Positions 1 through 4,907 of a DNA stretch of 4,907 bases are shown here, one piece after another; position 1 is the stretch's first letter; the number at the start of each line of letters is the position of its first letter. A program made the translations under genes and the position numbers. This DNA is from a virus (Duplodnaviria > Heunggongvirae > Uroviricota > Caudoviricetes). The stretch covers positions 1-4,907 of IMG/VR virus record IMGVR_UViG_2675903606_000017; one strand, 5' to 3'. Under the pieces are notes generated by a model. The model did not search any database. It worked only from the letters and a program-made list of their open reading frames with translations, and had not been told where the DNA came from.

Positions 1-342
1 CTGCATTACCGGCTGCACTTTCTGCCGTCTTTCTTGACAATTCAGCTTCTGCTGCACTTTGTGATGACTCACTGGCTTTTTGAGCGGCCGCAGAAGCCGA
101 GGACGAGGACGCATCCTCTGACTTCTTTGCTGAGGCTGCACTTTCTGCCGCCTGCCGGGCTGACTCCGATGCCTCCCCTGCTGAAGTGTCAGCATTTGCC
201 GCGCTCGCTTCCGCCTGACTGACTGATATGCCGGCATTCCTCGCGGACGTCTCTGCTTCTCCGGCATTCTTCTTCGCCTCCTCTGCGTGACGCGCCACCT
301 CTTCCACCATCAGTTCAAAACGACGCAGTGCCTCCGGACGGA
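1..342 (-). pseudogene. Internal fragment of a lambdoid-type side tail fibre protein (Stf-like); the ORF continues past the left edge of the window and its 5' part is missing, apparently cut off by the Mu-like insertion at about 343
   Basis: Hand translation of the minus strand from 358 down to 1 gives one open frame with no stop: DSPGYIRPEALRRFELMVEEVARHAEEAKKNAGEAETSARNAGISVSQAEASAANADTSAGEASESARQAAESAASAKKSEDASSSSASAAAQKASESSQSAAEAELSRKTAESAAGNA. The RPEALRRFELMVEEVAR block followed by an Ala/Ser/Glu/Lys-rich repetitive shaft matches, from memory, the conserved N-terminal region of phage lambda Stf-type side tail fibres (lambda has ...DDARPEVLRRLELMVEEVARNA...). The conserved block is preceded in frame by unrelated residues and then a stop about 19 codons upstream (around 398-400). 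The only in-frame ATG (309-311) falls inside the conserved block (the M of ELMVEE). The ORF is absent from the six-frame track, presumably because it has no stop inside the window. Confidence 0.65.
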
Positions 343-357
343 TGTAACCAGGTGAAT

Positions 358-371
358 CATTTGATACCGAC
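358..371 (+). repeat. Putative terminal transposase-binding site L1 (CATTTGATACCGAC)
   Basis: TTTGATACCGAC at 360-371 is repeated exactly at 455-466 and as TTTGATACTGC at 507-517. Extended, L1 (358-371, CATTTGATACCGAC) matches the third copy (505-518, CATTTGATACTGCT) at 12 of 14 positions. The three copies start about 16, 111 and 163 bp from the proposed end, similar to the L1/L2/L3 arrangement I recall for Mu attL. Confidence 0.45.
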
Positions 372-452
372 AAGGGTTTTAGTGAAAGGAGGTGAAATCA
401 CCTGTAAGATGCTGAAATAAAACAGGTGATGTATACTTCGGACGGAAAACTC

Positions 453-466
453 TTTTTGATACCGAC
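453..466 (+). repeat. Putative terminal transposase-binding site L2 (TTTTTGATACCGAC)
   Basis: Exact 12-bp repeat of the L1 core (TTTGATACCGAC, 455-466), same orientation. Confidence 0.45.
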
Positions 467-504
467 TGCTCAACAAATAGTCAAAAGATCAAAAAACGGC
501 GACA

Positions 505-518
505 CATTTGATACTGCT
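505..518 (+). repeat. Putative terminal transposase-binding site L3 (CATTTGATACTGCT)
   Basis: 12 of 14 match to the L1 copy at 358-371, same orientation, about 40 bp downstream of L2. Confidence 0.4.
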
Positions 519-698
519 AATTTACCCTTAAAATCTTCTTCAAAACATCTTCAAACTGCCAAAATGCTCACATAATCGATCTAACTATAATCAGTATGAT
601 AATCATCATGAATTACTATTCAATAGCGTGATTATCTTGGGATGAGTCATATGATCTCTATATGTATTTACAGCACCACCTCATGATAGCGATGGCGC

Positions 699-1310
699 TT
701 AACCAACAACATTTTTCTTTACTGTCACTGCCCCTGATTCCTGGGTGGCGTTATTGCTCGAGTTGTACTTCTCAATAACGCGCAAAATCTCTTTGTCTGT
801 TTCTTCACTTCCCGCCATTCCTATCTTTATTGCATTTTTTAGTACGGGACGTAATGGCAAGGCATCAATGATGCTTTCTACCGCATCCTGGCTGATTGTA
901 GATGTATTCATTGCTGCCAGCCTGACAAGGTTGTTAGTACCTTCTCGCCTGATGAATGTAAGGATTAATTGCTTCTCTTGGGGGCTTAGAGAGCTAAGCG
1001 CCTGATCAATACCCGAACCCGAATCGCAATTTTTTTCGATTTTTCCGCATTCATCTTCGTTCTTGCCTGTGGCCAACCATTCGAGTGAACAATTACAGGC
1101 TTTAGCTATTAAGGCCAGTTTATCCAAAGGAGGGAAGTTTTTCCCCTTCCTGTAATTTCTTACTGTGGCTTCAGATAGTCCACAAAGGGTCGCCAGTTCG
1201 ACGTTTGTCATGTTTCCCATAGCCATAGCTAAGCGTTCTGAAAATCGGTTTATTCCTTCCATATCAATAAACCGTTCCGCACTGGATACGGTTTTTTCTG
1301 CCTTATCCAT
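699..1310 (-). CDS. Prophage repressor with an XRE/Cro-CI-type helix-turn-helix (functional analogue of Mu c)
   Basis: 203-aa ORF divergent from ner-A-B, in the position of Mu c. Residues about 30-85 (MTNVELATLCGLSEATVRNYRKGKNFPPLDKLALIAKACNCSLEWLATG) look like a typical XRE-family HTH. Good Shine-Dalgarno on the minus strand (AGGGGG, 4 nt, ATG at 1310). No obvious LexA-like Ser/Lys autocleavage motif. The C-terminal tail (...ESGAVTVKKNVVG) loosely resembles the Mu repressor C-terminus as I recall it. Confidence 0.75.
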   Translation of the reverse strand: MDKAEKTVSSAERFIDMEGINRFSERLAMAMGNMTNVELATLCGLSEATVRNYRKGKNFPPLDKLALIAKACNCSLEWLATGKNEDECGKIEKNCDSGSGIDQALSSLSPQEKQLILTFIRREGTNNLVRLAAMNTSTISQDAVESIIDALPLRPVLKNAIKIGMAGSEETDKEILRVIEKYNSSNNATQESGAVTVKKNVVG

Positions 1311-1466
1311 ATAACCCCCTATAAAACAAAGAAATTATCGGCATCGCATTTAATTTCGATATGCTCGCAAAAAACTGTTGATATCGAATTATTTTGCGAT
1401 TATGATTTACCTAAATCGATAACCGGTTTTGATTATCGGTTCAGGTAAACATGAGAGGATCACACA
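1311..1466. promoter_or_regulatory. Divergent operator/promoter region between repressor and ner; likely also the transposition enhancer equivalent
   Basis: AT-rich 156-bp intergenic region between divergent genes. The pentamer TATCG or its complement CGATA occurs five times (1336-1340, 1357-1361, 1382-1386, 1417-1421, 1434-1438). These include an inverted repeat CGATAA(1417-1422)-N10-TTATCG(1433-1438) centred on the palindrome ACCGGT (1422-1427). The region lies about 970-1120 bp from the proposed left end, comparable to the Mu operator/enhancer position. Confidence 0.5.
1378..1406 (+). promoter_or_regulatory. Candidate early promoter (Pe-like) for ner-A-B: -35 TTGATA (1378-1383), 17-bp spacer, -10 TATGAT (1401-1406)
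   Basis: Near-consensus sigma70 hexamers with the optimal 17-bp spacer, about 60 bp upstream of the ner start. Predicted transcription start near 1413, just upstream of the CGATAA-N10-TTATCG inverted repeat. Confidence 0.5.
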
Positions 1467-1733
1467 ATGAGGGTATCCAGACAAGCATCGAATAATTTGT
1501 TTGTTCGAGAGGGGTGTGACTGGTCTGCTAAAGCGGTATATGCAGCCCTTGAAAACAAAGGCACAGACCTCCCTGAACTGGAAAGGGAGTTAGGATTAAA
1601 AAGCGGATCAATGCGCAATGTGTTTTACCGCCAGTGCCGTAAATACGAAGCCGCCATCGCCGAAAAAATAGGGGTTGAACCTGCTGTAATCTGGCCCAGC
1701 AGATACCAGGTGGACGCCAGAGAAGTGGCTTGA
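1467..1733 (+). CDS. ner: Ner-like DNA-binding protein (Mu Ner / Nlp family)
   Basis: 88-aa ORF immediately upstream of the transposase gene. Residues DW...LS...PEVIWPSRYQ match Mu Ner as recalled (DWHRADVIAGL...ETKPEVIWPSRYQ); this window has DWSAKAVYAAL...GVEPAVIWPSRYQ. Shine-Dalgarno GAGAGGA about 8 nt upstream of the ATG at 1467. The N-terminus is about 10 residues longer than Mu Ner, so the true start could differ. Confidence 0.85.
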   Translation: MRVSRQASNNLFVREGCDWSAKAVYAALENKGTDLPELERELGLKSGSMRNVFYRQCRKYEAAIAEKIGVEPAVIWPSRYQVDAREVA

Positions 1734-1743
1734 TGGGGGATGT

Positions 1744-3834
1744 ATGTGGGTAACAGCAAAAGAATGTGTTGGTCTTCCTGATTTACCAATGATGGAACAT
1801 AACATTCGCCATCGACTCACAAAAGCAGCTGCGGGAAATGCAGCCATGTTACGCAAACGTAAGGGGACAAAAGCAATCGAATTTAATATCGATTGTTTGC
1901 CTTCTGGCGCGCAACAAGTATTGCGTGAACGTTATGCCCTTCAACTGATGACGCAAAAAGCTGATGAATCACCGGCTCCGGTGGTGACAAAGGCCAGACG
2001 CTCATCTGCCGTGGTTGATGCGGTGGAGGCATATCGCGGATCACCACAACTGATGCTCGAACGCCTCAATGCCCTGACTGAAAACCAGCGCCAGGTGGCT
2101 GATGCACGAATCGCGATCGTCAGCGAAGTTCTGAAAGTCGCGCAACAACCTGGTTTCAGCTGTGCGAAGGCTATCCGGTTTATCGTTGACAACCTGGCAC
2201 GTTCGCAACTGGACGAGCGCATTGTGGCAATGGTTGAGACGGCGAACGCCAAAAAGGGAAACAGCCGTGCGTTGAGTGAAATCACGCTGAAACGCTGGAT
2301 TGCAGCCTTTAACAAGGCGCAGAACGCCGCTGAACGCCTGCTTTTGCTGGCACCTGGTAAGCGCCAGGAAATAAAAGCCGAAGATATTAACTGGCTGCCC
2401 GAATTTCTGGCGCAGTATCGCCAGTCAAACGGCCGACCAATGACCGAGGCTTACGAGGATTTTGTCGCTGAATGGCAGCACCGGCACGCTGATGAGCCTT
2501 ATATGCTCGATATCATGCCGTCTTATGACACCATTCGCCGCGCAATGAAGAAACTGCCGGAAGTGGTGAAACAAAAAGGCCGGGTGACCGGCAGTGAATA
2601 CCGCCAGCTTGAGGGATTCACGCGCCGCGACTGGTCCAGAATGCCGGTGAATTATGTCTGGATTGGTGACGGTCACGGCATGAAGCTGAAATGCGCACAC
2701 CCGGTTCACGGTCGGCCATTTGCACCGGAAGTGACCTTTGTTATCGACGGTGGCACGCGCTTTGTGGTGGGCTGGAGCCTTGACCTGGCTGAAAATGTTT
2801 TCGCCGTAGCCGGTGCCATACAGCACGGCATTCGCCATCACGGCAAACCGTTTCTGTATTACTCGGATAACGGCTCCGGGGAAACCGCCGACATCCTGGA
2901 TAAGGAGGTTGTGGGGATACTGCCGCGACTGGGGATTAATCACCCGACCGGGATTGCCGGTAATCCGCAGGGACGAGGCATTATCGAACGGCTTAACCGC
3001 ACATTACCGATGCGCATAGCCCGTAAATACCGCACCTATTTCGGGAAAGGTGCAGATCGCGAGACGTTACGCAAAACCAACCGCGATTTACGCTCGGCAT
3101 TTACTGCCCTGCAACAGGGCAAACGGCTGAACGCCCGGCAGCAGTCAGCGATGCGTGATTTACCGTCCTGGTCTGAACTGATTGATGCCATTCGTGACGG
3201 TGTTGAGTGGTACAACAACCGGCCGCACGATGAATTACCGGTGAAGCCGAACGGCAAGCATTACAGCCCGGCGGAGTTCAGAAAAAAACGCCTGGCGGAA
3301 GAGGACACGGAAATTGAATGGCTGTCCGATGTTGAGCTGCGGGATATGTTCCGGCCGATGGTGGAACGCCCTGTAAGACGCTGTGAAATACGCTGGCTGA
3401 ATAATATTTACTACGCGCCCGAGCTGCGTGACGAGCATGGTCGTAAGGTGCTTATCAGCTATGACATTCATGATGCCGAACGAATTACCGTACGTCGCCT
3501 GGATGGCAGCGTGATTTGCGAGGCGGTATGGGACGGCAATAAACGCGAAGCCTTCCCGATCAGCGCGGAATACCACAAACAGCAGCAGCGCCTTAAAGGC
3601 ATGCGTAAACGCGCAGAGGAAAAAATCCGTGATGCCGAGGATGAGATTGTCAACGTGCTGGAGCACAAGCCACAGGAGCCGTGGCTGGAAAATATATACC
3701 GCCCTGTGGGTAATACGGTGATCGTTCAGCAACCGGTCGCTGACGATGAACCTGATGAAGAATACGAGCGTAATTTCCAGCGGGGATTGCAGCTGCTTGA
3801 AGCGAAATTAAAAGAAAATGACCCTCTGGCCTGA
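1744..3834 (+). CDS. A: MuA-like DDE transposase
   Basis: 696-aa ORF. The N-terminus (WVTAKECVGLPDLP...KGTKAIEFNIDCLP) parallels the Mu A enhancer-binding domain (WVSPKECANLPGLP...KGGKAIEYNANSLP). Candidate catalytic DDE residues sit in VWIGDGHG, YYSDNGSG and GIIERLNRTL. The C-terminus (RPVGNT...DEEYERNFQRGLQLLE) resembles the Mu A C-terminal MuB/ClpX-interaction region. Shine-Dalgarno GGGGGA upstream; the start lies 10 nt after the ner stop. Confidence 0.95.
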   Translation: MWVTAKECVGLPDLPMMEHNIRHRLTKAAAGNAAMLRKRKGTKAIEFNIDCLPSGAQQVLRERYALQLMTQKADESPAPVVTKARRSSAVVDAVEAYRGSPQLMLERLNALTENQRQVADARIAIVSEVLKVAQQPGFSCAKAIRFIVDNLARSQLDERIVAMVETANAKKGNSRALSEITLKRWIAAFNKAQNAAERLLLLAPGKRQEIKAEDINWLPEFLAQYRQSNGRPMTEAYEDFVAEWQHRHADEPYMLDIMPSYDTIRRAMKKLPEVVKQKGRVTGSEYRQLEGFTRRDWSRMPVNYVWIGDGHGMKLKCAHPVHGRPFAPEVTFVIDGGTRFVVGWSLDLAENVFAVAGAIQHGIRHHGKPFLYYSDNGSGETADILDKEVVGILPRLGINHPTGIAGNPQGRGIIERLNRTLPMRIARKYRTYFGKGADRETLRKTNRDLRSAFTALQQGKRLNARQQSAMRDLPSWSELIDAIRDGVEWYNNRPHDELPVKPNGKHYSPAEFRKKRLAEEDTEIEWLSDVELRDMFRPMVERPVRRCEIRWLNNIYYAPELRDEHGRKVLISYDIHDAERITVRRLDGSVICEAVWDGNKREAFPISAEYHKQQQRLKGMRKRAEEKIRDAEDEIVNVLEHKPQEPWLENIYRPVGNTVIVQQPVADDEPDEEYERNFQRGLQLLEAKLKENDPLA

Positions 3835-3841
3835 AATAAAA

Positions 3842-3871
3842 AAATAACCCGAGCGGCGACTCAGGTTATTT
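3842..3871 (+). terminator. Stem-loop between the A and B genes; possible partial terminator, attenuator or RNA-stability element
   Basis: AAATAACCCGAG (3842-3853) pairs with CTCAGGTTATTT (3860-3871) at 11 of 12 positions (one C/A mismatch), with loop CGGCGA. An A-rich run lies 5' and the 3' arm is T-rich, followed by GATT. The GC core is short (CCCGAG/CTCAGG), so termination would be weak at best. Confidence 0.35.
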
Positions 3872-3909
3872 GATTAAACAAAGGAACTACACAAACGCGA
3901 GGTAATAAT

Positions 3910-4827
3910 ATGACCGATATAAACGATGTAATCAAGACCATTGATGAACTTATTGATGGCGGCGTGCTGACGCAGTATGCCATCGCCAGAGAGGCGGGAA
4001 TTTCCGACGGCACATTATCGGCTTTCCGCAAGGGGAAATATAAAGGCGATAACGCCGCTGTGGCTGCTTCCCTGCGCTCCTGGTATGAGAACTGGAATAA
4101 ACAAAGCGCACTGCCGGAACCGCCGCAGTTTGTGGAAACTCAGACAGTCCAGGAGCTGCGCGCACTGTTTCAGGCGGTTCGCCTGATGGGCTGTATTAAC
4201 GTTATTGTGGGCGTACCGGGTGTGGGTAAAACGGCCACTGCCCGTAATTACTGCCAGGAGCAACCAAACACCTGGATGATCACCCTGTCACCCGCGCACT
4301 CCAGCGTCACGGAGTGTCTGCTGGAGCTGGCCGATGCGCTGGGGATTGATTACACCCGCGCGAACAAAGGGGCATTATCCCGCGCCATCCGCCGTCGCCT
4401 GATGGGAACGCGTGGACTGGTGATTGTGGATGAGGCGGATCATCTTGGTATTGACGGTCTGGAGCAACTCCGGGCAATTCAGGACGCCACGGGGATCGGG
4501 ATGGTGCTTATTGGTAACCCGCGCGGATTGTTTAAAGGTGGACGCCGCGCCTTTGATGATTTATCGCGCCTGTTCAGCCGTCTTGCCCGTACAAAACAAC
4601 TTCGCAAGGCCAAAAAGGCGGATGTGCTGGCCATTGCCAGGGCATGGGGTATCAGTGGTGAGGCCGAGCTGGCTGTCATGCAGGCTATCGCTGAAAAGCC
4701 GGGAGCGTTACGCGTTCTGACACATACGCTTAACCAGGCGTGGCTCACCGCCAGCGGTGAAGGCGCGGCGCTGACAGAAAAACATATTAATGCGGCCTTT
4801 GGTAATGCTGCCAACTTACTGATTTAG
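3910..4827 (+). CDS. B: MuB-like AAA+ ATPase (transposition target-DNA activator)
   Basis: 305-aa ORF directly downstream of the transposase gene. Walker A GVPGVGKT and Walker B LVIVDEADHL are present. Strong similarity to Mu B as recalled (PEPPQFVETQTV here versus PEPPRFVETQTV; KPGALRVL versus KPGALRIL). Shine-Dalgarno GAGGT about 8 nt upstream of the ATG. Confidence 0.93.
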   Translation: MTDINDVIKTIDELIDGGVLTQYAIAREAGISDGTLSAFRKGKYKGDNAAVAASLRSWYENWNKQSALPEPPQFVETQTVQELRALFQAVRLMGCINVIVGVPGVGKTATARNYCQEQPNTWMITLSPAHSSVTECLLELADALGIDYTRANKGALSRAIRRRLMGTRGLVIVDEADHLGIDGLEQLRAIQDATGIGMVLIGNPRGLFKGGRRAFDDLSRLFSRLARTKQLRKAKKADVLAIARAWGISGEAELAVMQAIAEKPGALRVLTHTLNQAWLTASGEGAALTEKHINAAFGNAANLLI

Positions 4828-4907
4828 TGTATGATGGTGATTTTAAGGTGCTTGCGTGGCTTCCATTTCCATCAGATGTCCTTCCTGCTCCGCTACTGAA
4901 GGCGTGG

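Follow-up and report, generated by a model that had tools for sequence, protein, structure and literature searches.

The 4,907-bp stretch of DNA analysed here (hereafter the window), which is the entire contig CYAZ01000121.1 of the draft isolate assembly GCA_001284505.1, very probably records a DDE transposition event in which a Mu-like transposable phage of the Sp18 type integrated into the gene for the side tail fibre of a resident lambdoid prophage. The exact sequence of the fusion between the MuB-like protein and IS1 retrieved this contig at coordinates 1–4907, and the gene calls recorded for it leave out the truncated gene at the left edge. One junction is visible in the window, and it is the left (repressor-side) junction of the element. 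The assembly stops at the two contig ends because both lie in repeated DNA, the left one in the prophage tail-fibre gene and the right one in an IS1 element. The arrangement would thus comprise three mobile elements, one inside the other, with IS1 lodged in a Mu-like prophage that itself lies within a lambdoid prophage (Table 1). Insertion of a Mu-like prophage into the tail-fibre gene of a lambdoid prophage had been proposed in an initial annotation made from the letters of the window, and the proposal is now supported by 1) an intact allele of the tail-fibre gene and 2) the presence of the same element at other sites.

Table 1. Features located in the 4,907-bp window (contig CYAZ01000121.1)
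Feature	Position	Strand	Remarks
Side tail-fibre gene of lambdoid prophage, 3'-ward fragment	1–342	−	Gene nt 293–634, codons about 99–212 of 437
CGGA, target bases predicted to recur at the right end	339–342		Expected from the 4-bp duplications of relatives and the K-12 empty site
Left end (attL) of the Mu-like element	343–545	+	Terminal TGTAACC and three motif copies; 545 boundary approximate
Tail-fibre frame continued into the Mu-like end	343–400	−	19 codons, then TGA at 398–400
Repressor, 203 aa, CI-type helix-turn-helix	699–1310	−	Pfam Phage_CI_repr 1.6e-9, HTH_3 4.4e-9
Ner-like early regulator, 88 aa	1467–1733	+	Pfam HTH_35 1.7e-20; 38% to Mu Ner, E 5e-14
Transposase A, 696 aa, Mu-type architecture	1744–3834	+	Pfam and MuA alignment
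MuB-like AAA+ transposition protein	3910–4800	+	Directly downstream of the transposase gene; last 13 codons missing
IS1F-type insertion sequence, left end	4801–4907	+	Inserted in the B gene; contig ends inside

Translation of the minus-strand frame of bases 1–409 gave SYR-stop-FHLLSLKPLSVSNDSPGYIRPEALRRFELMVEEVARHAEEAKKNAGEAETS... with ...SNDSPGYIRPEALRRFELMVEEVARHAEE..., followed by an Ala/Ser/Glu-rich repetitive stretch, and the conserved motif RPEALRRFELMVEEVAR was located at 340–290 on this strand; the same RPEALRRFELMVEEVAR segment occurs in the Stf-type side tail fibres of EHEC lambdoid prophages. Alignment of bases 1–342 revealed 100% identity with the tail-fibre gene annotated in the Stx2a-converting phage Stx2_95 (GenBank:LC567838) and 99.7% identity with a gene in a prophage of E. 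coli E2863. The Stf-type motif and repetitive shaft described in the initial annotation for the minus strand of this region were therefore confirmed by both translation and alignment. In the Stx2_95 and E2863 loci the gene is intact: it spans 1,314 nt, encodes 437 aa and is preceded by J and lom, in the order of lambdoid tail modules. Its product has 98 residues preceding RPEALRR, in frame with the fragment in the window. The intact protein carries phage_tail_N (PF08400), collagen repeats and Phage_fiber_C (PF06820) as identified by Pfam, whereas the fragment matched only positions 99–133 of the 134 in PF08400 (E 9.8e-7), so that of the N-terminal domain only the final 35 positions remain, together with an Ala/Ser-rich shaft. 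Compared with intact Stf-type fibres, the fragment is truncated and has no start codon, the first 98 codons being missing from the contig. Since the frame that reads through into the Mu-like end has no start codon either, the remaining fragment is a pseudogene.

A three-way alignment of the window with the two intact tail-fibre genes showed sequences identical through base 342 and unrelated from base 343. The insertion point is between nt 292 and nt 297 of the gene, which is split after codon 98, inside the N-terminal domain. Both the break at 342/343 and the TGA codon closing the read-through frame agree with the earlier observation that homology was lost at about 340 and a stop was reached within about 19 codons. 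Comparison with loci devoid of the insertion, which had been suggested as a check, likewise agreed with an insertion: the uninterrupted allele of Stx2_95 matched over the whole of 1–342 and then continued, in frame, with the missing N-terminal codons. The junction between tail-fibre gene and Mu-like element was shared by none of the 5,426 complete E. coli genomes searched by megablast, and the exact junction 44-mer had no match in species-representative genomes.

The same megablast search located the segment 343–4800 in 36 complete E. coli genomes at 98–99.8% identity, and one IS1-bearing relative was less close (96.3% identity). Nearly all matches started at query base 342 or 343, with a few chance extensions to 329–339. 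Genes adjoining the copies included bglJ, cho, betT, siiEA, yghD, glrR and sugar transporter genes, and other copies adjoined prophage genes; among the best 30 matches, five had entered other prophages, in the structural genes portal, TipJ, terminase small subunit and, in two related strains, head completion. Full-length relatives are 38.8–39.4 kb long and carry gam, mor, lysis genes, Mu-type head genes, contractile-tail genes, a DNA invertase gene, com and mom, together with an invertible tail-fibre segment as in Mu. The window itself stops at IS1, after 4.6 kb of the element.

The left end of the element begins with TGTAACCAGG, bases 343–344 being TG, and contains a presumed transposase-binding motif, TTTGATAC(C/T)G, in three direct copies (bp 360–370, bp 455–465 and bp 507–517). 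By chance, 0.34 copies would be expected, and three or more were reached in 1 of 200 shuffles. The TG and the Mu-like end repeats that had been noticed from 343 onward are thus borne out. The motif does not seem to resemble the MuA-binding consensus. In the relatives, the right end has TTTGATAC(C/T)G three times in inverted orientation and terminates in ...CGCCGCGCTATA, and the first motif copy is located 18 nt from the terminus at both ends. This equal offset establishes that the last A of the right end belongs to the element.

Phage Mu duplicates 5 bp of its target, whereas Sp18-type relatives duplicate 4 bp. A 4-bp flanking duplication was found in all seven relatives examined, namely AGAG (cho), GTAC (bglJ), CCAG (portal), TGCC (terminase), CGTA (TipJ), GATG (Stx2c phage, GenBank:LC727881) and TAAA (Sp18, in sorM); 4-bp repeat regions had also been annotated by the depositors of LC727881 themselves. 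The empty site, uninterrupted bglJ of strain K-12, could be rebuilt only by the 4-bp model. A 5-bp model was rejected, as the fifth base was mismatched in five relatives out of seven (Sp18 among them) and the model did not fit the K-12 empty site. Consequently, the 5-bp duplication ACGGA postulated in the initial annotation has to be replaced by a 4-bp one. It is correct that ACGGA (bp 338–342) fits the Mu target preference N-Y-S-R-N, as had been pointed out, but the pentamer argument carries no weight here because only two of the seven flanking pentamers fitted (counted by eye), near the 1-in-8 chance rate. Moreover, the terminal base of the element is A, and the far junction would therefore still read ...TA-CGGA; a simple search for ACGGA there would succeed, but for a spurious reason. 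The 4-bp duplication and the TA right terminus of Sp18-type elements were stated in no paper that we found; they are annotated in GenBank:LC727881.

In the early region, the repressor gene diverges from the early operon, a position as in Mu. The "canonical Mu early gene set" of the initial annotation holds for the gene order, which is Mu-like, but not for the label canonical: A, B and Ner are 22%, 48% and 38% identical to their Mu counterparts, respectively, and the repressor is of the CI/HTH_3 type and showed no similarity to Mu c (E 2.4). The transposase had Pfam matches above the cut-offs to Mu-transpos_C (PF09299, 1.5e-17) and HTH_Tnp_Mu_1 (PF02316, 3.2e-5), the rve core giving a sub-threshold score only, and aligned end to end with MuA (E 8e-14). 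Its nearest relatives among transposases of named phages were those of a Mannheimia phage (43%) and of the Pseudomonas D3112 type (about 30%). The MuB-like protein contained AAA_22 (PF13401, 4e-18) and Phage-MuB_C (PF09077, 1.4e-24).

It was also noticed that RefSeq annotates the transposase of most relatives as a 680-aa protein with a start 16 codons downstream (loci L005 2450, L006, L007 and L008). Residues 1–16 of the 696-aa frame (MWVTAKECVGLPDLP; bp 1744–1791) align with the MuA N-terminus, and in strain Sakai the protein is annotated as 696 aa. On these grounds, the longer start is probably the right one.

The last segment of the window (bp 4801–4907) matched, at 100% identity, the termini of elements that carry an IS1 family or IS1-like IS1F family transposase annotation in many genomes, and contained the IS1 terminal inverted repeat and the start of insA. 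Homology with the other Mu-like copies ends at 4800. IS1F replaces the last 13 codons of B, the open frame continuing to 4827 and adding GNAANLLI before a stop; an intact 3' end of B is present in one relative (locus L005). The insertion interrupts the early operon, and the Mu-like prophage itself has probably been disabled by it. MuB without its C-terminal 18 residues reportedly (Chaconas and co-workers, 1985) supports integration but not replicative transposition. If this holds for the present protein, the window copy would probably be unable to grow lytically.

A second IS1 was observed near this position in strain HCP4S3_I4 (GenBank:NZ_CM149872; locus L004 10430–10460), in which a related element situated in cho carries IS1A 17 bp upstream of the IS1F site (bp 4784–4800 of the window). 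This element has lost about 29 kb beside IS1A, being 10.0 kb long versus 39 kb. Common descent of the two IS1 insertions in B was considered and rejected, because the other copy is IS1A and is located 17 bp upstream. Two independent IS1 insertions within 17 bp suggest that the AT-rich 3' end of B is a local hot spot for IS1.

A simple insertion predicts that the right junction reads ...CGCCGCGCTATA-CGGA-CGTCATCCTCCGACATGG (also given as ...CGCCGCGCTATA-CGGA-CGTCATCC...). This DNA had no match in the species-representative genome collection, which does not hold the other contigs of GCA_001284505.1. Fusion proteins across the right junction were also predicted for duplications of 0, 3, 4, 5 and 6 bp, and each was looked up by its exact sequence; the 105-aa protein predicted for the junction (...SEDDVRIARRFF; ...DDVRIARRFF) was absent from the protein collection, from which the other contigs of GCA_001284505.1 are likewise missing. 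The only sequence present was the 98-aa "0-bp" one, which was rejected as a junction since its records are labelled partial, i.e., they are contig-end fragments. Hundreds of draft E. coli contigs end within the N-terminal 60–145 codons or so of this tail-fibre gene family, examples being 98-aa partial products on 73 contigs and 102-aa ones on 155 contigs, which shows that the N-terminal region is a routine assembly break point. Because draft contigs routinely break there, the right-junction contig of the source strain is likely to be very short.

Three other explanations were weighed against insertion by transposition. The left junction might be real and yet be the product of a secondary rearrangement, either a deletion or inversion arising from Mu-type replicative transposition or an IS1-mediated deletion or inversion starting from 4801; the N-terminal part of the tail-fibre gene would then not be located beyond the right end, and no CGGA repeat would be found. 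An IS1F copy does sit inside the element, the related element with IS1A 17 bp away did lose about 29 kb beside its IS, and neither the predicted right-junction protein nor the DNA was found in the collections searched. However, those negative searches did not cover the source assembly, and all seven relatives, including the IS1-deleted one, are simple insertions with intact 4-bp repeats. We consider a rearrangement of this kind unlikely.

It is far less probable that the junction is a chimera produced by joining tail-fibre and Mu-like contigs in a short-read draft. The source is indeed fragmented, with repeated sequence at both ends of the contig, but chimeras form at shared repeats and none exists at 342/343; moreover, the break coincides exactly with the base at which more than 30 independent insertions place the end of the element, which would not happen with an artefact, and the same contig was recorded in two samples. 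The proposal that 343–698 is a natural variant of the region upstream of the tail-fibre gene, with Mu-like genes merely adjacent, found no support and is refuted. In the 5,426 genomes, 343–700 was always linked to Mu-like genes and never to the tail-fibre gene, so that no case of 343–698 running on into a tail-fibre gene in the absence of Mu-like genes was encountered; none of the records covered 80% of bases 1–700, and intact tail-fibre genes continue with unrelated coding sequence at this point.

For transposition of an Sp18-type phage into the tail-fibre gene, the following course of events can be proposed. Transposase A would have bound the three repeats at each end and, together with the MuB-like ATPase, joined the ends to the target DNA with a 4-bp stagger, so that CGGA should flank the element on both sides. 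The N-terminal attachment domain of the tail fibre would thereby have been parted from the shaft and the distal part left untranslatable; with the attachment domain separated and the fragment lacking a start codon, no fibre would be made. A full-length insert (about 39 kb in relatives) would also make the host lambdoid prophage too large to package, as 39 kb or so added to a lambdoid prophage of about 46–60 kb exceeds the limit for cos packaging. The sole comparable record, LC727881, is 92,886 bp including its insert. Later, IS1F would have entered the 3' end of B, probably crippling the Mu-like phage.

Among the closest known systems is Sp18 of E. coli O157:H7 Sakai, a Mu-like prophage that is the prototype of the family (PMC2669165). 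Sp18 has the same termini (TGTAACCAGG... / ...CGCCGCGCTATA), a 4-bp duplication and a transposase of the same length, and is 97.3% identical to the window over 1910–4800, a region covering the transposase from about codon 56 and B. In contrast, bases 433–1909 (the inner part of attL, the repressor gene, ner and the first 55 or so codons of A) had no megablast match in Sp18, although both flanks matched at about 97%, and the repressor gene is 531 nt in Sp18 versus 612 nt in the window. Because this segment is unmatched, the copy in the window is one with a different (swapped) immunity module within the Sp18 family. Unlike Sp18, it also carries IS1F in B.

An event of the same kind is represented by Mu_JNE082796 (39,968 bp), an Sp18-type element with a transposase 93% identical to that of the window, which is inserted in the Stx2c-converting phage Stx2c_JNE082796 (GenBank:LC727881). 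It also generated a 4-bp duplication, but at a different position of the host prophage (GATG) and in a different strain.

With phage Mu (GenBank:NC_000929), the element and its relatives have in common 1) the order of a leftward repressor gene followed by rightward ner, A and B, 2) a left-terminal 5'-TG, 3) random insertion sites, 4) three transposase-site repeats at each terminus, widely spaced at the left one and clustered at the right one, and 5) homologues of MuB and Ner, as well as mor, com, mom and gam in the relatives. They differ in the low identity of the transposase, in the CI-type repressor unrelated to Mu c, and in the right terminus, which is TA in the Sp18-type relatives versus CA in Mu. 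The relatives therefore lack two of the features of Mu sensu stricto (Muvirus), the 5-bp duplication and the TG...CA termini, and the window lacks a third, a repressor of the Mu c type, which is related to the N-terminal domain of MuA. Features of the Sp18 lineage of Mu-like phages were found instead, namely Mu-type transposase domains, a MuB-type ATPase gene, occurrence of the same element at many unrelated sites, and TG plus the motifs at the left end in the window, the mirrored right end being seen in the relatives only.

Sp18-type phages are known to occupy strain-specific sites (PMC7430833). Nakamura and colleagues located 6 of 10 Mu-like phages of closed CC119 STEC genomes within mobile elements and reported Mu-like insertions in several Stx phage genomes (PMC10132054). 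These six copies, the five of our best 30 matches that are in prophage structural genes, and the window itself could be read as a sign that Sp18-type phages land or persist in resident prophages more often than by chance, thereby disabling competing prophages; we regard this as doubtful, and the pattern may reflect real targeting or a tolerance of insertions in dispensable DNA, the present data fitting either. Insertion of Mu-like phages into prophages, Stx phages among them, has been reported before, and the window is one more ordinary instance.

Beyond annotation, the importance of the finding is slight. It accounts for the joining of a tail-fibre fragment to Mu-like genes in this contig and identifies both prophages as probably defective. 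For Sp18-type elements in E. coli drafts it provides a boundary rule, i.e., a 4-bp repeat flanking the ends TGTAACC... and ...GCGCTATA; applying the 5-bp rule of Mu to this family would misplace the right boundary by one base.
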